From assembly GCA_047631715.1 (NCBI GenBank), contig JBLICC010000027.1:1-11253 (forward strand): a stretch of 11,253 bases of DNA. Direction: 5' to 3'. This DNA is from Alteromonas naphthalenivorans (GTDB taxonomy: Bacteria; Babelota; Babeliae; Babelales; CAIQNR01). Shown here piece after piece: positions 1-10,627 of this stretch. Below the pieces are notes generated by a model. It had not been told where the DNA came from. It ran no database searches and was given only the letters and a program-made list of their open reading frames with translations. A program made the translations under genes and the position numbers. Every line of letters starts with the position of its first letter. Position 1 is the stretch's first letter.

Positions 1-448
1 TGTGTTCTATTAATTGAAGCAGCTCGCAAAGTTGCCGTGTATTTACTCGTTGTAGTGTTGCTTGTAAGGTTACCTCAGTATATCGTTTTTTCAATACTTC
101 TTCGGTAATTCTTGCTTGTCCGCGCTGCTTTCCTGTTAATTGTAGCTTGCGCAGAGTATCTTCGAAAAAGTTTTTAATCTTAAAGTTTTTATCTTTCTCT
201 AAAAGCGTATTCACTTCACTGCTTTGTTTTTGAACATTTTTTAAACGTTCTAGTAATTCTTTTGCTACAAGCTCTTGTTTGTAGACTTCTTTTAATACTC
301 CTTGGAGCCGTCGTGTTCTTGTGTAGTAAAACCACATGCTTCCTGTGGTAACGAGTACTGCGAATCCTACAAAAAGCATACTGTTTCTATAAAATTCACT
401 TGTATCAAAAGAGCTGAAAGTGCTTCGTACTTTTTGCAAAAAGGTCAT
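1..448 (-). CDS. gspM: Type II secretion system GspM/PilO-like inner-membrane protein (3'-truncated by window edge)
   Basis: Absent from the ORF track because it has no stop in the window. Its ATG at 448 overlaps the gspL stop (ATGA), with SD AAGGAG at about 457-462. Manual translation is open for 149 codons: MTFLQKVRSTF...MLFVGFAVLVTTGSMWFYY (one TM helix), a coiled-coil-like region, then YTEVTLQATLQRVNTRQLCELLQLIEH, typical of the GspM/PilO ferredoxin-like domain. It lies directly after gspL. Confidence 0.7.
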   Translation of the reverse strand, partial: MTFLQKVRSTFSSFDTSEFYRNSMLFVGFAVLVTTGSMWFYYTRTRRLQGVLKEVYKQELVAKELLERLKNVQKQSSEVNTLLEKDKNFKIKNFFEDTLRKLQLTGKQRGQARITEEVLKKRYTEVTLQATLQRVNTRQLCELLQLIEH

Positions 449-1908
449 GATTGAACTCCTTTGTTAGCAATAGTAAGTACGATAGGATTAAATGAAGTTT
501 GTTGTAGAAACGGAACATCGGAAAAGAGTTCTGTCTCTTTGAGTTGTTTTTCGAATTCATCAATTGCTTCAAAATTTCTAACGTTACCATCAAGAGTAAT
601 TGTCCCCTTGCCGATAACCATTTTTTTAAGTTCGAGCCCCAAAACTTCTCTGTCTACTTTTGTACTTAAATCGAGTAAATATTTTAAAAAAGAATGTTGA
701 GTTTGGCTAGAAAAAGAAAACCAAATCTCTTCTTCTTTTTGAATTTGTTTTTTTGCGTTTTTTACCGCTTCTTTAAGAGAGCTACCTTTGATCCCAGAGA
801 AATTCTTTTTTAGGTCGGCAAGCGCTCGCTTTTTTGCTTTATCTGTTATAGAAGAGAGATTTCTTATTTGCAAAAAAGTATGTACCGAAAGAGATGCTGC
901 AATGGCAAGGCTTAATAGGGCTGCGGTAACAAATTGAGCATTAAATCGTTCTTGGTGTCCTGTTATAGATTCGTTCATTAATAAGTTGAAGTTAGAGGCT
1001 ATTTCAGATGGATAAGCCGTTGCGGTGCTTATAAGATTAAGAGGCTCATGAGTTGGAGCCATTTTTATTTTTGCTGTTTCTAACGCTGCTTCTAGTTTAA
1101 ATGTTTCGCATGGCATTCCGCCCAGTGCGTCTTTTACTTGCGCCAAGAGATCATGGCCAACGGATCCCATCAGGTATACTTTTTTTACGTCGCCTTCTTC
1201 TTGGATAAAAGAGTCGAGAGTAAAGGCAACTTGCTGAAGAGAAGATTCGTTATCGACAAGATTCTTCTGTATAGTTCTAACTTTTTTAAGAATGCCTTTT
1301 TTAAGATAAGCAATATGTGTTTTGGTGTCGTCTATTATAATAAGAGCAGTATTTTGTTTTTGATTTATAGGAGTGATTTTTTTATACAAACCAAAGACGC
1401 TGACAAGGTCTACCGTTATAGCATCTAAGAAAAGATTTGCTTTAGAGAAAAGACCTACATGGTCCGCAATATACTTTTTTTGAACGGCGGCAACAAGAAT
1501 AGAAGACGTTTTTGCCTTTGTGTCTTCTTGTGTAATAATAAAATCGATATTTGCTTGATCAATAGGAAACGGCAAATAGGATTCAAGTTCAAAATTAAGA
1601 ATAAGAGCTATTTTTTCTTCTCCAATAATGGGAAGAGCGAGCTCTTTGAAAACAATAAATGAACTATCGATGGTTGTTATAAGAGCGTCATAGCTTTTAA
1701 TTTTCCCCATAATCTTAGAAAGAGCTTCAACAATTTTTTCTGGTTTATCTATGGGCTCGCTATAAGAGCTTTCTATAGAGATGGAGTTTCCGTTTGCAAC
1801 AATAACGGTAGCGTATACGACATTTTTAGTAATATGCACACCAACGGTCTTTTTTTTGAAAAGAAAGTAAGAGCCCACTCTTTCTGGGAAAAAAATATTT
1901 TTTATCAT
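445..1908 (-). CDS. gspL: Type II secretion system protein GspL (PilM-like actin-fold cytoplasmic domain + TM + PilN-like periplasmic domain)
   Basis: 487 aa. Motifs FKELALP, FELESYLPFPIDQANIDF and ILVAAVQK are PilM/GspL-like. One TM helix (FVTAALLSLAIAASLSV) and a C-terminal ITLDGNVRNFEAIDEFEKQL (PilN/GspL-C-like). ATGA overlap with gspD and SD AAGGAGGT at 1916-1923. Confidence 0.8.
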   Translation of the reverse strand: MIKNIFFPERVGSYFLFKKKTVGVHITKNVVYATVIVANGNSISIESSYSEPIDKPEKIVEALSKIMGKIKSYDALITTIDSSFIVFKELALPIIGEEKIALILNFELESYLPFPIDQANIDFIITQEDTKAKTSSILVAAVQKKYIADHVGLFSKANLFLDAITVDLVSVFGLYKKITPINQKQNTALIIIDDTKTHIAYLKKGILKKVRTIQKNLVDNESSLQQVAFTLDSFIQEEGDVKKVYLMGSVGHDLLAQVKDALGGMPCETFKLEAALETAKIKMAPTHEPLNLISTATAYPSEIASNFNLLMNESITGHQERFNAQFVTAALLSLAIAASLSVHTFLQIRNLSSITDKAKKRALADLKKNFSGIKGSSLKEAVKNAKKQIQKEEEIWFSFSSQTQHSFLKYLLDLSTKVDREVLGLELKKMVIGKGTITLDGNVRNFEAIDEFEKQLKETELFSDVPFLQQTSFNPIVLTIANKGVQS

Positions 1909-4652
1909 GAACGAGACCTCCTTCTTTTTATAGAAGGTTTTCTTGTGAGCTTAGCTATTTTTTTCTTTTTTTCTTTCTTTTTCTCCGGATTAACTTGGTG
2001 CATAAAATCGTTCATGTGTTGTGTGGTTGAGTCGTGTCCGCTTTCTCCGAAGAAGAGTTTGTTGATAGGGTCTTTTCCTGTTGGATCATGACATCCAGAT
2101 TGCTGGCTCATCGTGCTTGTTGCTTGAACTTTGTGCTTCATATATTCATCTGCAGTGTCTGACATACCAGGGAAAATAATTTGAGGAGAGATAAAAATAA
2201 GAACATTAGATCGAGTTTTTGTTTTTAACTTACTTTTAAAGAGCCATCCAAGTCCTGGTATATCTCCTAGAAGAGGTGTTTTTCTTACTTCCTGGGTTAC
2301 TTTATTTTTGATGATCCCACCAAGAACCAAAACTTCTCTGTTTTGAACAATAGCTGCTGTATTGACTGTTTTCTTTATTTTATTTCCGTTACTTACGTCT
2401 GAACTGGAGTAGTCGTCAATTGAAATATGAATAGTCATTTGAATACTTCCATCGGAACTAATTTGAGGCGTGATGACTACTTCTAAATTAGCATGATCCT
2501 GTGAGAACCCCTGGCTGGTTTGTCCATTTGTTGTAACGTTACTGGTAACAATATTTCGTGTGCTTCCTAGAGTAACACTTGCTTGGTAGTTATTAGTTGC
2601 AAGCAGGAAAGGGTTTGAGATGATATCTGTTTTTGAGGTCTGTTGAAGAATGTTCATAATCCCCCAAATGCCTGATTGATTGTTCCCTACAGATAGGACA
2701 GTTGATCCACTTACTGCAGAAGATGCAAGGCTAATGAGGTTTCCAAGAAGGCTGCCATCGGATGCATTTACTACGCCGCCATAACTTCCAATAGAAGTAG
2801 GCATTCCGGTGCGTTGAAAATCAACATTTTTAACAAAGCTGTTAGTTGATTTATTTCTTATTTGTGTTCCTAAAATTTTATCATCACTTGTTTGAACATC
2901 TACAATAAGCACTTCGATAATGGTTTGAGGTTGAACAACATCAAGTTTTTTAATAATTTCTTTGAGTTTGTCATAGTCGTTTTCTTCGGCTTTAATAATG
3001 AGTCTATTCCCTGACTTATCTGGAGTAATAGTCATTGGTCCAAAGTACTGGTTGCCGTCTCGCACTCCACCATATTGAGCGGCAGCTGTTCCGCCGCCAA
3101 ACTTTGTTGCTGTGCTGTTTAAAATCTGTGCAATGTTAGTAGCTTGTGTGTATTGAAGTTCATAAATGTGAAGCGGAGAATAAGGCATATCAAGTTCAAC
3201 ATCTACATGTTTTACAATAAATTCTTCAATCTTTGCAAGCGCTGCTTTGGGGCCTAGAAGAATTAAAGAGTTGGTTCGTCGTTCTGGTAAAATTCGAGCA
3301 TTGGCCGGAAAGTACAACGATTTTGGCTGGTTGCGTTGAGTAGAAAATCGAGCAGCACCCTTTGGCGCTTCTGCCTGAGTGAGCGATTGATAAAGTTTAG
3401 CGACGTCTTCGGCGTCAGATTTTTTTAATTTTATTACCGACATTGCTTCTGGCATTTCTTTATCGAACTCTTTAACTATTTTCATAAGAGATCGAATATT
3501 GGAGCCTTTATCTGTAAGAATGAGAGCATTAAGGTCGGGGAATGTTAAGATTGGCCCTGCCGTTGAGCTTGAAAACGACTTAACCACTTCTTGAATGGCG
3601 CCTAGCGGAGTATTTTTTACAAAAAAGACATACCGAACTTTGGTGCTGTTGTCGGGAATAACATCAAGTTTGGTATCAAAAAATGTTGGGAGCACTTCTC
3701 TGTTTGCGTTTGTTAAGGAAGTGATTCTATAGAAGCGAGTTTTTTTGTGAGGCTTTGTTGGGTCTATGTTTTCTGTAGCTCTGCTATCGCCTTCTCCTGG
3801 AACAACTGCAAATCCAGCCATATCTAAGAATTTTAGAAAGAGGCTCCATGCTTCTGGGCGGGTTAAAGGCTTATTGGTGGTAAAGGTGAGCTTGTGCCCT
3901 TTAAGAGCTGAGCCACCATGCGGCAATGGATTAAGGTCGTCATCTATATAGAACTTTATGTTATACAATTCTTCTATATAGCGAACTAAGTTTTCGAGGG
4001 TTGCATCTTCAAAGTAAAAACGCACGAGTTGGTCATCTTTTTCTTGCTGTAAGATTTGTGCGTGGCTGATATGCTTGTCTTTGTCGTGATGCTTCTCATC
4101 ATGCTCTTTATCTTTGTCTTTGCCTGTATCGTGATGCTTAGCTGGGGAATCTTTTTTGTCATGCTTTGCTTCTGTGAGCATTTTTGTTTTATCTGATTTT
4201 TTATCTTCTGGAGCTTTATCTTTTTTATCATGATGGGTTTGTTCTTTTGGAACTTTAACTTTCCCTGCAAGTGTATCTTTATCAAGAGGTGGAGGTGTTG
4301 GCATTACAGGAATAGTGACAGAGCCAACTTTTGTAGTTTTTATAACCGGATGTTTTGGTTCGTGTGTAGATTTCTCTTCTGTATTATGTGTGGCTACAGG
4401 CACAGGATCTTTTTTTGATAGATCAGGAGGAGTAGGTAGTTTGCCTGGCGTACTGATAGGTGCATCGTGCGGAGCTGGAGGGTGTGCAGGTGGGATAGGT
4501 TTTTTCTCAGTATCTAAAGGATGGGCAGAAGAAGAATCTTTTTGCTGCATATGAGACAAGATGCCTCGAGAAGCAAAAAGTAATTGTGAGCTAAAACATA
4601 AAGCACTTAGCAAGAGAATAAAAATGTATGATCGGTTCTTTTTTTTATTCAT
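1905..4652 (-). CDS. gspD: Type II secretion system secretin GspD with long low-complexity N-terminal extension
   Basis: 915 aa. Signal peptide, N0 domain (FYFEDATLENLV), N-domain repeats (LNALILTD, RTNSLILLG, SGNRLII), QTIIEVLIVDV, and the secretin C-terminal signature LVLGGII...KTPLLGDIPGLGWLFK...NVLIFISPQII. Confidence 0.95.
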   Translation of the reverse strand: MNKKKNRSYIFILLLSALCFSSQLLFASRGILSHMQQKDSSSAHPLDTEKKPIPPAHPPAPHDAPISTPGKLPTPPDLSKKDPVPVATHNTEEKSTHEPKHPVIKTTKVGSVTIPVMPTPPPLDKDTLAGKVKVPKEQTHHDKKDKAPEDKKSDKTKMLTEAKHDKKDSPAKHHDTGKDKDKEHDEKHHDKDKHISHAQILQQEKDDQLVRFYFEDATLENLVRYIEELYNIKFYIDDDLNPLPHGGSALKGHKLTFTTNKPLTRPEAWSLFLKFLDMAGFAVVPGEGDSRATENIDPTKPHKKTRFYRITSLTNANREVLPTFFDTKLDVIPDNSTKVRYVFFVKNTPLGAIQEVVKSFSSSTAGPILTFPDLNALILTDKGSNIRSLMKIVKEFDKEMPEAMSVIKLKKSDAEDVAKLYQSLTQAEAPKGAARFSTQRNQPKSLYFPANARILPERRTNSLILLGPKAALAKIEEFIVKHVDVELDMPYSPLHIYELQYTQATNIAQILNSTATKFGGGTAAAQYGGVRDGNQYFGPMTITPDKSGNRLIIKAEENDYDKLKEIIKKLDVVQPQTIIEVLIVDVQTSDDKILGTQIRNKSTNSFVKNVDFQRTGMPTSIGSYGGVVNASDGSLLGNLISLASSAVSGSTVLSVGNNQSGIWGIMNILQQTSKTDIISNPFLLATNNYQASVTLGSTRNIVTSNVTTNGQTSQGFSQDHANLEVVITPQISSDGSIQMTIHISIDDYSSSDVSNGNKIKKTVNTAAIVQNREVLVLGGIIKNKVTQEVRKTPLLGDIPGLGWLFKSKLKTKTRSNVLIFISPQIIFPGMSDTADEYMKHKVQATSTMSQQSGCHDPTGKDPINKLFFGESGHDSTTQHMNDFMHQVNPEKKKEKKKKIAKLTRKPSIKRRRSRS

Positions 4653-4654
4653 AG

Positions 4655-5794
4655 TTACGATTCTTTAGGAAGTGAAAAATCTTTTAACTTTCCTGCTTTG
4701 CCTTCTGCAAGCATTTTCTTTCTTTGGTCAATCATGATCTCTTGTACTGTTGGTGCAAAGGTGTGGCGTTCTTTGAGCGTTGCAATACGTTCGCGTTCCA
4801 ATTCTTCGTCGCTTGGCCCTTTGAGCGCACCAGTTTCTTCTTCATCGTCATCATGACTACGATCTTTTGTTAGCGGATCTCGTAAGTCGTGAAGTTTAAA
4901 GGTTAGTGTTATTGGTTGATGATTGTGAGTTATTTCGACTATACAGGAGTCTCCAATTTTGAGCGAGGTAAGTTTGTTATAGATGTGAAGCCGCTCATCT
5001 GTTTTTGTAGCGGGGATTCCGGCTATTTTGTTTACAATGCTATATGGCTCTAGTCCCATTGCTACCCCTAACGAACTGTGTGTAATTTTTCCTATTCGAC
5101 ACCCAATACTCTTACCTTCTTTATATACAGTTGTTAGATCGAACATGTCAATGAAGTGTGCAAGATTTGGCACTAGGTCGGTAAATGCTTGAGGGTCTAG
5201 AAGAAAGTCGTGGTTGCTTATTTTTTTAATTAAGTGGCTCCAGTCTTCTTCGTTTTCAACAAGAGCAGAGTCTGTATCTGCTGATTTTCCATTAAGATAT
5301 AATGTTTCTTGTTGTCCGTTAGATCGAATAAGAATTACTTTGTTCCGTAAAATTCGAACAACTTGAGCATCTTCTATAGGGTCGCCAACTTTATAGTTTT
5401 CATCTTTTTTAGTTTTGTTATCGGCAATAACTGCAATATTATTACTCTCGTCGCTTAAGAGCATAATGCCCTTGAGAGTTGCTTCGAGTGGGGGCAAGAA
5501 TGGTTGTTTGGGTTCATCAGGAAGATGCACAGTTGTTGGCCCTGGTGGATTTGGAATTGGTTTTGCATAATCTGGTTCAACTGCTGGTTTTACTTGTTCA
5601 TGGTAAGTATCAAACAGATCATTATCATAAATGTTTGCAATGTTAATTACAGCAACATGATGTGCTGTGACATGAGCTTTTGCTTTTACTTTTTTTGGTT
5701 TAGGAATAATTGGCCTGGAGAGGAAGACGAATCCTAAACAGACTGCGAATAAAAGTAAGAGCGAACTGTTAATTATCCAGAACGGGTGTCTCAT
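4655..5794 (-). CDS. gspC: Type II secretion system protein GspC (TM + HR domain + PDZ-like domain)
   Basis: 379 aa. N-terminal TM helix, proline-rich linker, HR domain (LKGIM...IAVIAD...YKVGDPIEDAQVVRILRNKVILIRSNGQQETLYL) and a PDZ-like region (MGLEPYSIVNKIAGIP). It ends 2 bp before gspD. Confidence 0.85.
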   Translation of the reverse strand: MRHPFWIINSSLLLLFAVCLGFVFLSRPIIPKPKKVKAKAHVTAHHVAVINIANIYDNDLFDTYHEQVKPAVEPDYAKPIPNPPGPTTVHLPDEPKQPFLPPLEATLKGIMLLSDESNNIAVIADNKTKKDENYKVGDPIEDAQVVRILRNKVILIRSNGQQETLYLNGKSADTDSALVENEEDWSHLIKKISNHDFLLDPQAFTDLVPNLAHFIDMFDLTTVYKEGKSIGCRIGKITHSSLGVAMGLEPYSIVNKIAGIPATKTDERLHIYNKLTSLKIGDSCIVEITHNHQPITLTFKLHDLRDPLTKDRSHDDDEEETGALKGPSDEELERERIATLKERHTFAPTVQEIMIDQRKKMLAEGKAGKLKDFSLPKES

Positions 5795-5882: not shown

Positions 5883-6875
5883 TTAGGGGGAAGGAATCGT
5901 AGATAAAATTTTCTGTATCACTATGTCTGTCTTAATATCTTCTGCTTCTGCTTGGTAAGAAAGTAACAATCTGTGGCGTAAAATCGCAGGGGCAACAGCC
6001 TTTATATCATCAGGAATAACAAAGTGGCGTGCTTTTAAAAATGCGTAAGCGCGTGCTGCTTGGTGTAATGCGAGTGTTGCTCGGGGTGAGACGCCATATT
6101 GAATATAATCAGCGATATCATTAAGTTTGTATTCTTTTGGATTACGCGTTGCAAAGACAATATCAACAATATAATCTTTTATTTTATCATCTACATATAT
6201 TTTTTGTACAAGGCCCTGAGATTCAAAGATATCTTTCTTTTTTAAGACTTGCTTGATTTGATTAAGATCAAAGTTTTTATTTAAGATTTCTTTTTCATGT
6301 ATTTTTTCTGGATATTTAACATCAAGTTTAAACATGAATCGATCAACTTGGGCTTCGGGTAATCGATAAGTGCCTTCTTGTTCTATAGGATTTTGAGTTG
6401 CAAAAACTAAGAATGGAGGGTCGAGGGGAAACGTTTCTGACCCAATAGTTACCTGTCGTTCTTGCATAGCCTCTAGAAGGGCTGCTTGGACTTTAGCGGG
6501 AGCTCGGTTAATTTCATCGGCCAAGATTAAATTAGCAAATATAGGTCCTTTTTTTGTAGAGAACTCTTGAGTTTTGGGATTATAGATAAGTGTTCCAATA
6601 AGATCGGCTGGAAGCAAGTCTGGAGTAAATTGAATACGGGAAAAGTCTAAACCAAGAGCCGAATTTACAGCTTTGATCATAAGTGTTTTTGCAACGCCCG
6701 GCACGCCTTCGAGCATGATGTGTCCATTACTTAAAATTGCTAACTCTATAAATGTAATAATCTCTTGTTGCCCAACAATAACATTGGCAACTTCACGAGA
6801 AAGAGCATTAAATAGTGCACTTTTTTCTTTAATTGCTTCTATGACTTGGTTATCAAAAGTGTTATTCGTAGACAT
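5883..6875 (-). CDS. moxR: MoxR family AAA+ ATPase
   Basis: Walker A GVPGVAKT, RIQFTPDLLPAD, Walker B ADEINRA, ATQNPIEQEGTYRLPEAQVDRF and GVSPRA. The ATG at 6875 (GAGGG SD upstream) is preferred over the track's TTG at 6887. Confidence 0.95.
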   Translation of the reverse strand: MSTNNTFDNQVIEAIKEKSALFNALSREVANVIVGQQEIITFIELAILSNGHIMLEGVPGVAKTLMIKAVNSALGLDFSRIQFTPDLLPADLIGTLIYNPKTQEFSTKKGPIFANLILADEINRAPAKVQAALLEAMQERQVTIGSETFPLDPPFLVFATQNPIEQEGTYRLPEAQVDRFMFKLDVKYPEKIHEKEILNKNFDLNQIKQVLKKKDIFESQGLVQKIYVDDKIKDYIVDIVFATRNPKEYKLNDIADYIQYGVSPRATLALHQAARAYAFLKARHFVIPDDIKAVAPAILRHRLLLSYQAEAEDIKTDIVIQKILSTIPSP

Positions 6876-7512: not shown

Positions 7513-7548
7513 AAAATAAAATATTCTAAAAAAGAAGGAGATGTGTTT

Positions 7549-7869
7549 ATGGAATTTTATATTAATATATTGCATTTGGTTACGATGTATATTGGCATTG
7601 CGGTGATTACTCTTGGGGTAGCGCTCTCTGTAGCAGAGCTTGTAAAGATGCTGTATGCAAAGAATCCGGATCTTTTGTATCGCCAAGCACGGATGATTTT
7701 GTGTAAGCATATTGTTTTTGGCTTAGAGTTTATGCTTGCTGGGGATGTTGTTAAAACTATCGTTATGCCAGACTATCACTCGCTTGCTCTTCTGGGTGGT
7801 CTCGTGGTTATTAGAACAATATTAAGTTATTTTGTTGATGTTGAATTAAGGCAATTACGTAAATCATAG
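7549..7869 (+). CDS. DUF1622 domain membrane protein
   Basis: Motifs GLEFMLAGDVVKTI and LGGLVVIRTILSYF match my recollection of DUF1622. The ATG at 7549 is 8 nt after SD AAGGAG (7535-7540); the track uses GTG 7543. Confidence 0.85.
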   Translation: MEFYINILHLVTMYIGIAVITLGVALSVAELVKMLYAKNPDLLYRQARMILCKHIVFGLEFMLAGDVVKTIVMPDYHSLALLGGLVVIRTILSYFVDVELRQLRKS

Positions 7870-7894
7870 CAGATAGAATAAAGGTTAAGGGGTT

Positions 7895-8290
7895 GTGTTG
7901 AGAAATTTATATTTTTGTTTATTTGTTATTTTCCAGTCTAGTGTTGCGGCAGATACTAATGATGCCATTGGGCATTATTACTCTCCTGTTTATGAAGGTT
8001 ATTATTTACATTATGAGCGATTGTTGCTTGCAAATACGGTGACGGTTCATTTAGAAAAGCCAGGAAGAAGAATTGTTACGTTTTGGGGGTATAAAGACGA
8101 GCAAAGTGCGTTTTATATTACTAAAATAGACCCATGGGTTAGCTTATATAAGCGCGACTTTGACGCAATAGGGGCGTTATTGGTGGATGCAAAAGATGCG
8201 TCTATAAAGGAGTTAAGGATACATTCGTGCGTGCAAAAAGATTTGTACGAAAGGGGTATTCTTAGTTTTGACGATATAAAGCTTGGTTAG
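7895..8290 (+). CDS. Hypothetical exported protein (signal peptide)
   Basis: 131 aa with a GTG/TTG start after AAGGGG. The N-terminus MLRNLYFCLFVIFQSSVAA resembles a Sec signal peptide. No family recognised. Confidence 0.6.
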   Translation: MLRNLYFCLFVIFQSSVAADTNDAIGHYYSPVYEGYYLHYERLLLANTVTVHLEKPGRRIVTFWGYKDEQSAFYITKIDPWVSLYKRDFDAIGALLVDAKDASIKELRIHSCVQKDLYERGILSFDDIKLG

Positions 8291-8293
8291 TTG

Positions 8294-8362
8294 TTATTGA
8301 TTCTTAACAATCTCGGACTGAATTGGTCCTTTAGTTTCTCCACGAATAAATTGATACACTTG
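8294..8362 (-). repeat. Displaced copy of the mlaF 3' end (last 22 codons + stop); direct repeat of 9860..9928, att-like
   Basis: 65/69 nt identical to 9860..9928. Mismatches at 8318, 8327, 8357 and 8360 are all synonymous third positions, so both copies encode QVYQFIRGETKGPIQSEIVKNQ*. Confidence 0.95.
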
Positions 8363-8401
8363 TTTAGTTTGTCGTTATTTGTAAAGGAGTGTCATTAAAG
8401 T

Positions 8402-9059
8402 ATGTATTTATTTAGCCTTCTCTTATTCTTGAATGTGGCAACAGTTTTTACGTTTGACCATCAAGGAGAACTATTCCTGGATTATTTTCGCGAGAGAGAT
8501 GAAGAAAAAAAACTGAATTAGAGATAAAAGATCTTGAGCAATTATCTAGTGTAGTTAGGCGTGACGAAAAGTATGGGTTTCCTTCTTTTCATATAGATTG
8601 GGACGATTCAAATATGGCGAAGGCCTGGAGTGCTGATATTTCAAGAATGCCTAAAATAAGCAATTTTCGGGAACACTTAGTGTTTCTTATCATGGATTTG
8701 CTCAAAACAAGTTATGCAAAGTAACTATGGAAATATTAGAAGAAAGGACTCCGTTTGATAATAATTATAAACTTAAAATCTTAGGCCTAGAGGGAGACTT
8801 TCGATACTTCCGTAGTTTTTTGGGAGCATTGTTTTACGATATTAAAAGCAGCCGTTGGAGGGGCATTACGTTAGGATATCATGATGGAAAAGAATACAGA
8901 AAATGGGGTAGTGTTACAGCGATTCGATTAGGACGGTTAAAAGAAAAACTGGATGAAGAAATTGTTTTAGATATGAATAAGGAATATTTGGAGTGGGGAG
9001 AAGAGAGAAAAAAAAGAATAAGGCAGCGTAGAGCTATAACTGGTTGGCCAATAAATTAA
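8402..9059 (+). pseudogene. Frameshifted paralog of the 9163..9852 exported protein (about 219 aa if repaired)
   Basis: SD AAGGAG at 8384-8389, ATG at 8402 and signal peptide MYLFSLLLFLNVATVFT. Similarity to the paralog continues across frames: FPSFHIDW vs PPSFRIAW, FSGTLSVSYHGFAQNKLCKVTM vs FFGSLSAFYKGFQRDELCKVTM, LEGDFRYFRSFLGAL vs LEGDVRYFRRFLKAL. Adding one A at the A8 run (8505-8512) and one at the A4 run (8653-8656) restores a single ORF. Track ORF 8727..9059 is its 3' half. Confidence 0.85.
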
Positions 9060-9149
9060 ATCTACAGATCTTTAGTTTTTTTACGAATAAATTGATTTAC
9101 CAGAGAGCCGTTAGAGCCTTAAATTTTTTTACATCGCCAACATACTGAA
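9046..9149 (-). repeat. Decayed copy of the gene-end/mlaF 3'-end junction
   Basis: By manual alignment, 9070..9149 matches 9895..9975 at about 61/81 columns with one 1-nt gap, including ACGAATAAATTGAT and ACATCGCCAACATACTGAA vs GCATCACCAACATATTGAA. Upstream, GCCAATAAAT matches 9845-9854, followed by an apparent deletion of about 26 nt. Confidence 0.8.
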
Positions 9150-9162
9150 AAAGGATCAAGAT

Positions 9163-9852
9163 ATGAATAAAATTAACTATCTTTTATTTTTGAGTGTAAC
9201 AGTTATTTTTGCACCTAATGGGTCAACTCAAACAGACCGGATTGCGCCTGTTGGTGCGCTTAAAGAGAAAGTAAAAGAGTGTGTAATGAGCATAGGCGCT
9301 TTAAAACGCCTTTCTGATGAGATTGGGTACGATACTACGCTCGATACAGAACGTGGAAATTATCCTCCATCATTTAGAATAGCTTGGCAAGGTCGCAGAG
9401 TATCTGAATGGGAGCCTACAACATTTAGTTTAGAATACCAGAAAGAAGATTGTTTTTTTGGCTCATTGAGTGCTTTTTATAAGGGCTTTCAACGGGATGA
9501 ATTGTGTAAAGTTACAATGAAACAACAAATGATAATAAGTTCTTCTTATCCAGCATATACAGAGACTAGAGTTAAAATTGTAAAACTAGAAGGAGATGTG
9601 CGTTATTTTCGAAGATTTCTTAAGGCATTAGCTTGTGATGTAGAGTTAAGCATGTTTGTAGCAACGTATGTTTTGAAGTTTCCTGAAAGAAAAGATAATG
9701 AAAGGTGGGGAAGAGTCGCGGCTGTTAATATGGGAAAATTTGAAAAAGAATTTAGCGCAGTACCTCGTTTAGATATGAAAAAAGAATATCCAAAATGGAT
9801 AAAAAAAAGTGAAGAGGAATTGAAAAAAGGCAATCGATATTGTCGCCAATAA
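9163..9852 (+). CDS. Hypothetical exported protein of unknown family (paralog of 8402..9059)
   Basis: 229 aa, SD AAGGA at 9151-9155 and a signal-peptide-like MNKINYLLFLSVTVIFA. Shares motifs LCKVTM, LEGDxRYFR, WGxVxA and LDMxKEYxxW with the upstream pseudogene. Confidence 0.8.
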   Translation: MNKINYLLFLSVTVIFAPNGSTQTDRIAPVGALKEKVKECVMSIGALKRLSDEIGYDTTLDTERGNYPPSFRIAWQGRRVSEWEPTTFSLEYQKEDCFFGSLSAFYKGFQRDELCKVTMKQQMIISSSYPAYTETRVKIVKLEGDVRYFRRFLKALACDVELSMFVATYVLKFPERKDNERWGRVAAVNMGKFEKEFSAVPRLDMKKEYPKWIKKSEEELKKGNRYCRQ

Positions 9853-9859
9853 ATCAATT

Positions 9860-10627
9860 TTATTGATTCTTAACAATCTCGGATTGAATTGGCCCTTTAG
9901 TTTCTCCACGAATAAATTGATAAACCTGAGGGTTATCAGAATCCCAAATAGTTTTTGCATCACCAACATATTGAATGGTTCTGTCGTTTAACAATGCAAC
10001 TTGATCGGCATATTGAAAAATATCTGGATCATGAGAAATAACAACAGAGGTAAGGCCAAGCTTGTCTTGGGTGCTTTTCATGAGTTCATGGATAATGCGA
10101 ACGGTAATGGGATCGAGCCCTGTGGTTGGTTCGTCATAAAGAACAATTTTGGGATTAGTAATAAGTGTACGAGCAAGGCCAACACGTTTTTTCATTCCAC
10201 CCGAAAGTTCGGACGGATACTTTTCCATAGTCTCTTCGGGGTTCAAATTAACGAGTCCTAATTTTTCTCGTACAATTGGCTCAACTTCTTCTCGACTCAT
10301 GCCTTTTTCTAGAAGAGGAAGACCAATGTTCTCGAACACTGTTAAAGAGTCTAAGAGCGCAGCAAACTGAAACACATAGCCAACTTTTTTAAATACTTGT
10401 TGAAGCTGTTTGTCATCAAGGTCGGAGATGTCAACGCCATCGATAATCACTTGTCCTGATGTTGGTTTAATAAGGCCAATAATTTGTTTTAAAAGAACGG
10501 ATTTTCCTTCACCCGATTTTCCAATAATACAGGTCATTTTACCATCAGGAATAGTAAGGCTAACATCATTGGTAATCCAAGGGCTGTCATCACCAAAACG
10601 TTTTTTTAAGTTTCTTAGTTCAATCAT
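9860..10627 (-). CDS. mlaF: MlaF/Mkl-family ABC transporter ATP-binding protein
   Basis: Walker A GKSGEGKS, VFQFAALLDSLTVFENI, signature LSGGMKKRVGLAR, LYDEPTTGLDP, ISHD and C-terminal PQVYQFIRG...GPI. It follows mlaE. Confidence 0.92.
   Translation of the reverse strand: MIELRNLKKRFGDDSPWITNDVSLTIPDGKMTCIIGKSGEGKSVLLKQIIGLIKPTSGQVIIDGVDISDLDDKQLQQVFKKVGYVFQFAALLDSLTVFENIGLPLLEKGMSREEVEPIVREKLGLVNLNPEETMEKYPSELSGGMKKRVGLARTLITNPKIVLYDEPTTGLDPITVRIIHELMKSTQDKLGLTSVVISHDPDIFQYADQVALLNDRTIQYVGDAKTIWDSDNPQVYQFIRGETKGPIQSEIVKNQ

Follow-up and report, generated by a model that had tools for sequence, protein, structure and literature searches.

Why should the 3' end of a core gene stand three times in a row, once after each of three genes that have no known relatives? 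The question is raised by a stretch of DNA from Babelota, which are small-genome protist parasites. The window, that is, the whole stretch analysed (11,253 nucleotides), is an entire contig, JBLICC010000027.1, of an 845-kb metagenome-assembled genome of 58 contigs and 90% completeness. Its locus bears on core genes and on genes without known relatives together, in that spare mlaF ends flank a block of orphan genes. From left to right the order is a DUF1622 gene, orphan A, mlaF tail R1, orphan B, tail R2, orphan C and the live mlaF, whose own 3' end is called R3 here; therefore an mlaF tail stands after every orphan. This anatomy is probably the product of capture from related strains without an integrase, in which one homologous anchor was combined with one illegitimate joint, or a circularised fragment entered by a single crossover.

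Three mlaF tails of two ages

R1 (8294..8362, minus strand) is a young displaced copy of the last 23 mlaF codons including the stop, while R3 (9860..9928, minus strand) is the 3' end of the live gene. The two were found to be identical at 65 of 69 nt (94%), with a spacing of 1566 and E 8e-24 in a whole-genome comparison, and their identity ends at the mlaF stop TAA. At the four mismatches (8318/9884, 8327/9893, 8357/9923 and 8360/9926) the codon pairs in the mlaF frame are CAG/CAA, GTT/GTG, GGG/GGA and CAA/CAG, all of them silent. An earlier note on this DNA had described the 69-bp direct repeats, the identity from the stop onward and the silent mismatches, and realignment with a codon check confirmed them; its further point, that excision through the repeats would leave MlaF identical, holds as a prediction from the codons. 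The live gene (9860..10627, minus strand) encodes an mlaF-like ABC ATPase (Pfam ABC_tran) directly downstream of mlaE. It matches the NCBIfam MlaF model at E 2.5e-51, which is under the model cut-off, and its neighbour scores above the MlaE-family cut-off; the orthologue in the sister species is 87% identical. Rfam gave no family match in the window.

That description of the block was sound as to the repeat but incomplete, because a third mlaF tail and the paralogy of B and C had been missed. R2 (9035..9149, minus strand) is an older copy, about 75% identical, with an internal stop and two deletions. Its core (9070-9149) matches at 75% over 81 nt with E 1.6e-7 in the whole-genome search, and it reaches about 9035 in a gapped alignment. 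Five silent and 13 replacement differences, together with the internal stop, mark R2 as decayed. It lies between frameshifted B and its paralogue C and carries the same cargo/tail junction (GCCAATAAAT) as C/R3. Since R2 is closer to the live mlaF than R1 and yet older, B-R2-C would have formed first and been joined to A-R1 later.

The three orphans are encoded on the plus strand. Gene A (7895..8290) specifies 131 aa, with an N-terminus that is signal-peptide-like by eye and a stop 3 nt from R1. Gene C (9163..9852) is intact and convergent on mlaF, specifying 229 aa, again with a signal-peptide-like N-terminus by eye. Gene B (8402..9059) is a pseudogene broken by two frameshifts, one near the A8 run at 8505-8512 and one near 8650; its translation, with each break written as X, aligns with C over 223 columns at 29.6% identity (E 5e-28). 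A has no similarity to C and none that is significant to B. No Pfam or NCBIfam match was obtained for A, a search of 5.8 billion proteins returned only A itself, and 150 other genomes of the order gave one weak match (E 2e-4). C was absent from those 150 genomes; protein database searches returned C itself and the B fragment only, and no Pfam or NCBIfam family and no relative in viral contigs was found for it. Its single-sequence AlphaFold model was unusable, with a predicted local distance difference test score of 31.8. The last piece of B (110 aa) matched no Pfam family. As to the function of A and C, no homologue, family or fold emerged across the Pfam, NCBIfam, protein, Atlas, genome and viral searches. 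A GNAT-like look of both proteins, noted by eye, found no support.

Support from the assembly

Misassembly of the repeat locus, against which the earlier note had cautioned, is unlikely. Three public runs contain part of the stretch, all of them low-depth contig sets from which rare variants are dropped. In Logan, run X1, possibly the source sample, holds a single contig over 7627-11253 with no gaps and uniform depth. Run X2 matches 7890-8328 and 8615-9090 without a difference, the second piece covering the later part of B, and run X3, whose share is small and lies in one contig, matches 9795-9945 equally exactly. Together the X2 and X3 matches cover the A-R1, B-R2 and C-R3 joins. A strain chimera, in which two mlaF alleles with different downstream genes had been joined, is given hardly any weight. 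It would draw on the fragmentation of the genome and on the 8362/8363 junction between R1 and B, which among the pieces listed is bridged by X1 alone; against it, the longest exact stretch common to R1 and R3 is 29 nt, the block lies within one contig of uniform depth whose joins agree with two further runs, and the tail-copy pattern is seen again in a sister genome of 4 contigs. Neither an excised form nor an R1-to-R3 joint was present among the pieces listed in any of the three low-depth contig sets.

A variable slot between DUF1622 and mlaF

The DUF1622-mlaF junction is a variable slot, of which the DUF1622 gene (7543..7869, plus strand; Pfam PF07784, E 5e-19) is the conserved left anchor. 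In the sister species, the one further member of the genus that was searched, DUF1622 abuts mlaF with a 3-nt gap, which equals the gap between A and R1, and A, B and C are all missing. Across 14 family loci, mlaF is abutted by DUF1622 in 4 and by dcd in 2, the slot is occupied by other open reading frames (ORFs) in 7, many of them signal-peptide-like by eye, and a contig edge intervenes in 1; the relatives therefore do not share one fixed arrangement. An empty form of the site was thus found in the sister species, and it lacks gene A as well. Neither a genome with A abutting mlaF nor a C-only form was encountered among the family loci or the 150 other genomes of the order, and the relatives' family loci hold no mlaF-tail copies. 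Of 30 orthologous mlaF loci one was too short, and of the 29 tested only 1, the window itself, has a tail copy, about half of these loci having only 1.5 kb downstream. When metagenomes were scanned for a degenerate form of the mlaF tail, the 10 loci retrieved were all distant (46-50% identity, high G+C), and therefore none is a same-species mlaF allele.

Displaced tails at other core genes

Each core gene was searched for free DNA copies within 12 kb. In the window genome, 4 of 457 core genes (mlaF, mrdA and two unnamed genes) have a direct tail copy downstream, and since mlaF has two the copies number 5; near matches of 'mid' and 'head' type were left out here, being mostly a dispersed hairpin repeat or old duplications. 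The sister species has 6 such copies at 5 of 458 core genes (dprA twice, mrdA, uvrA, lysS and one unnamed), and additionally 3 upstream head copies. All 11 near tail copies in the two genomes are direct and downstream, with none upstream and none inverted; they range from 34 to 232 nt and fall on 8 different core genes. Gene names come from profile matches, of which that of mrdA scores just under the NCBIfam cut-off. In another genus of the family (G004) no copy was found at 350 core genes, or at 677 when all ORFs were used, and parts of two further genomes (G008 and G006) gave 0 of 131. The contrast of 9/915 core genes in the two sister species with 0/481 in other genera corresponds to a Fisher P of 0.03, in which kin are not independent. 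Displaced-tail events are most likely common in this genus.

One slot can hold different cargo. At mrdA the cargo is a 328-aa orphan in the window genome, an Ntox37 gene with a 97-aa ORF in the sister species, and an ankyrin protein in a genome of another family (G045), and in each of the three an mrdA tail copy follows the cargo. Orthologous mrdA loci, one of them dropped, have a tail copy in 2 of 29 cases (the window genome and G045). For dprA, again with one locus dropped, the figure is 1/29, where only 26-36-nt repeats across the stop are present, and this case was excluded from the pattern count. The nested dprA copies of the sister species are 96% (near) and 83% (far) identical, which is the order predicted by successive additions.

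Individual slots showed further features. In the sister species the dprA slot (L080:5950-8716) holds two tail copies, each after a small orphan, and the differences of the young copy cluster by the stop; the dprA slot of the window genome holds another orphan, of 124 aa, and no tail copy. The rpsT-mrdA interval of the sister species (L074:16679-17416) contains a signal-peptide-like ORF with an Ntox37 domain (E 5.7e-15), followed by the 97-aa ORF, possibly for immunity, and the pair is bracketed by mrdA tail copies. In the window genome each copy of the mrdA tail (contig C46; L084:1153-1246 and 2346-2440) folds into a strong hairpin of terminator type (z -6.25 and -4.53), and the displaced tail is nearer to the sister-species C-terminus than is the live mrdA. 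The lysS slot of the sister species (L072:18541-19954) contains a pair of paralogues, each of 205 aa and 48% identical to the other, of which one was scanned and is a C2H2 zinc-finger protein; between them lies a fused joint, where the head of the next gene downstream runs into the lysS tail. Another tail copy of that species (L093:185-2719, that is, C2:200185-202719) stands after a 560-aa cargo gene, with 36 identical bases, an internal deletion and the last codons; its target we take to be a pseudouridine-synthase-like gene.

One allele or two

Had the tails arisen by local duplication, the dead copy would change everywhere and the live copy at silent sites, so that 0.35-0.46 of the differences should be silent. 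The mlaF pair by itself (4/4 silent) departs from this with P 0.014-0.04, and 8 young copies pooled, with 21 silent and 10 replacement differences, with P 2e-4 to 0.01; 3 old copies, with 24 silent and 40 replacement differences, match the decay expectation. BLAST edges and the young/old split may bias these counts. The mrdA copy of G045, which is about 190 nt long and free of stops and indels, differs at 7 silent and 4 replacement positions, as counted by eye. The silent excess in the young copies thus supports a two-allele origin, so that the earlier suggestion of two mlaF alleles rather than a local duplication is probably right. Cargo paralogues are moreover more diverged than the tails adjacent to them: B and C are 54% identical in nucleotides in the last piece of B versus 75% for R2, and the lysS-slot pair is 70% identical versus 97.6% for the lysS tail. 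With moderate strength, the silent excess and this cargo/tail divergence favour a probable joining of divergent alleles.

The same observations weigh on local tandem duplication of an orphan with its mlaF tail, after which the cargo would have diverged fast or been replaced while gene conversion kept the tails alike, for which a single strain would suffice. B and C are paralogous and share the cargo/tail junction, the lysS slot shows a textbook duplication joint between paralogues, secreted-looking proteins form many tandem families in the genome, and one tail copy (C58) is 100% identical. The flanking units are thus homologous for B and C, but A is unrelated to them and the mrdA, dprA and uvrA cargo to their neighbours. 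Equal age, with dead DNA diverging at least as fast as coding DNA, is contradicted by non-coding tails that are more conserved than coding paralogues, and on the dead-copy side there are 9 silent and 6 replacement changes where 27-30% silent are expected (P 0.007-0.015). Local duplication is therefore held to be rather unlikely, although it is the strongest of the rivals.

A different account was considered for R1 by itself, namely that a local copy was kept and reshaped as the terminator of gene A, the silent pattern in the pair being partly coincidence. R1 contains a weak, terminator-like hairpin (8315..8329, plus strand), in whose stem both core R1-specific bases, 8318 and 8327, pair, with T's after it; a terminator pattern match was found in R1 only, and the mrdA tail copy offers the precedent of a strong hairpin. 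The R1 hairpin (-6.0 kcal/mol), however, is no better than shuffles and not significant (z -0.19), the scan yielded 3 sites versus 1.4 +/- 1.0 expected, and silent differences at uvrA, dprA and the G045 mrdA would be left without explanation, so that this account is very doubtful.

Recombinases and integrative elements

R1 and R3 had been compared in the earlier note with attL/attR, and could be the ends of an integrase-less integrative element or prophage, or a substrate of Xer acting in trans. Replacement of gene 3'-end tails is typical of integrases and counts for such an origin, as do the 90% completeness of the genome, the XerC-like gene that adjoins the target at mrdA, and a 41-nt tRNA-end-like duplicate elsewhere in the genome. 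The findings on recombinases run the other way. Pfam and NCBIfam scans of the block genes gave no recombinase, as had been stated before. In the genome, the search for one that might act in trans yielded two tyrosine recombinases, whose partial sequences best matched the XerC/XerD models; they are 93% and 86% identical in the sister species and conserved in relatives. No resolvase (PF00239) or rve (PF00665) match was found in the 90%-complete genome, PF07508 and other transposase families not being searched. The variety of targets and copy lengths, the lack of a common motif at the junctions of the 11 tail copies (by eye) and the lack of viral relatives of C argue further against an integrative element, which is accordingly regarded as improbable.

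A dif-like consensus, allowed 5 mismatches, matched more than 100 places and was uninformative, with none on this contig. The 41-nt direct duplicates (C11:17515-17555 and 18690-18730; tRNA-3'-end-like by eye) bracket a 363-aa orphan, and 52-nt terminator-like direct duplicates elsewhere in the same genome (C3:28395-28446 and 30452-30502) bracket a 624-aa orphan.

Probable capture from related strains

Integrase-free capture, the preferred explanation, would proceed from a DUF1622-mlaF slot that is filled by different, probably secreted orphan genes in different strains or close species. DNA from a relative would pair by ordinary homology at one end (mlaF, or dcd/DUF1622), and the other end would be joined illegitimately, either by homology-facilitated illegitimate recombination (HFIR) or by circularisation and then a single crossover. 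The outcome would be two slot occupants in tandem, parted by one parent's orphaned mlaF tail. At least two events would be required, an old one of which R2 remains between B and C, and then a recent one that set R1 between A and B-R2-C. With mlaF as the anchor, B-R2-C would be the incoming DNA, whereas with dcd/DUF1622 it would be A-R1, and the chances of the two are about even. The earlier view that the block between the repeats came in is thus unproven, as the block is a composite of two events and A with the left repeat may be the incoming part. The donor would be a related strain and natural transformation the presumed route; a ComEC domain and DprA, which may serve DNA uptake, are present in the genome. 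The divergent-allele anchor expected of HFIR or one-anchor integration appears as a statistical signal (21/10 silent/replacement, weaker without mlaF), and neither site specificity nor a dedicated recombinase was found, as expected. An HFIR joint has 3-10 bp of microhomology and is often coupled to a deletion.

Several points weigh against such capture. No donor allele was found in genome, metagenome or protein searches, nor was the A-mlaF or the C-only form, so that the sequence of the joint, with its microhomology, is inaccessible. HFIR usually pairs insertion with deletion and is rare in laboratory species. The pooled silent excess falls to P 0.025-0.052 once the mlaF pair is removed; within that pair, 2 of the 4 mismatches lie in the last six alignment bases, P is 0.12-0.2 when only the two core ones are counted, and both of these improve the R1 hairpin. 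Judged against the sister orthologue, polarity shows no bias (the copy is ancestral in 13 cases, the live gene in 15 and neither in 3), and therefore no donor can be named. The G+C of the cargo (0.35-0.37, versus 0.362 for the core) is host-like. Finally, comEC-like and dprA genes are likewise present in G004, which has no tail copies, so that competence genes alone are an insufficient explanation.

A wider proposal, tentative and held at somewhat less than even chances, is that effector turnover at core-gene ends is routine, genome-wide and integrase-free in this genus, with the slots at mlaF, mrdA, dprA, uvrA and lysS as integron-like accretion points. About 1% of core genes would carry a visible tail, beside stacked secreted orphans, ankyrin proteins and toxin-immunity pairs; cargo could be dropped by recombination between tails with the core protein unchanged, and the process would be much faster than in sister genera. 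If true, this would point to DNA uptake or repair having changed specifically in this lineage. The capture reading itself, if it holds, would explain the turnover of secreted orphans in small genomes of protist parasites in which no integrase was found, and a displaced tail would then be a simple marker by which candidate effectors of recent acquisition could be found. By itself the mlaF case is ordinary, and the added value lies in the genus-wide count.

Other features of the genomes

The window also carries, on the minus strand at 2-5794, a type II secretion-like operon with GspC, the secretin GspD, a PilM-like gene and further genes. Its GspD has a long N-terminus rich in His, Lys and Pro, and relatives have a second secretin just downstream of the operon. 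Elsewhere in the same genome, on contig C8 (L086:3713-3924 and 6295-6504), a small ORF with a hairpin is duplicated over 212 nt at 95% identity, and the two copies bracket DUF5122, Trp-repressor-like and solute-binding genes, which the sister species lacks at the same place. At C2:9713-12126 (L087:2713-5126) two diverged copies of a gene, presumably hpf-like, flank two orphan ORFs, and the sister species has one copy. Three tandem paralogues of 640-760 aa, with signal-peptide-like starts and a MutS-ATPase-domain-like C-terminal region, lie at C21:7175-13771. The dispersed hairpin repeat (for example C2:13663-13706) is abundant on many contigs of this genome, also within coding genes, and the same scan gave almost no matches in the sister species or G004.

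Comparison with known systems

A search of the open-access literature found no paper on displaced tails in Babelota. Integrative elements with attL/attR at gene 3' ends, and the islets without integrase that descend from them, resemble the present locus in that the gene end is restored, the displaced tail lies beyond the cargo and relatives show an empty site. They differ in that no integrase was found here, the targets are many, the repeat differences are silent and nested copies are of different ages.

In Escherichia coli, one-anchor linear DNA that is partly degraded and recircularised enters by a single crossover and leaves target duplications of 109-950 bp (PMC3240628), so that foreign DNA is flanked by a direct duplication of the homologous target end with no site-specific recombinase at work, as here. 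That case concerned laboratory conjugation and identical homology, in contrast to 69 bp at 94% identity in a natural setting. Transformation of Streptococcus pneumoniae triggers tandem duplications (merodiploids), including one small duplication without flanking repeats (PMC3784515), which is a competence-linked likeness. Those duplications are mostly larger than 100 kb, mediated by insertion sequences and made of self DNA, whereas the present blocks measure 0.3-2 kb and their cargo is divergent. Recombination inside paralogue clusters (PMC2568036) is a looser parallel.

HFIR was proposed for displacement arrays in the type VI secretion effector-immunity loci of Vibrio cholerae (Kirchberger et al. 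2017, PMC5361080). Both there and here, additions stand beside a conserved anchor, older material is orphaned, no integrase is involved, and one slot holds toxin-like cargo, here Ntox37 in the sister species. The anchors here are ordinary core genes scattered over the chromosome, the orphaned part is the anchor's own tail of 34-232 nt, and the cargo is a gene of its own, convergent in most cases, unlike the fused effector tip of V. cholerae. Knowledge of HFIR-type capture comes chiefly from transformation in the laboratory and from toxin arrays, while its probable scars here can be counted and ordered by age genome-wide. In conclusion, the class of mechanism is already known, and what is new is the nested three-tail anatomy, the reuse of one slot with different cargo, and a countable rate that is uneven between genera.

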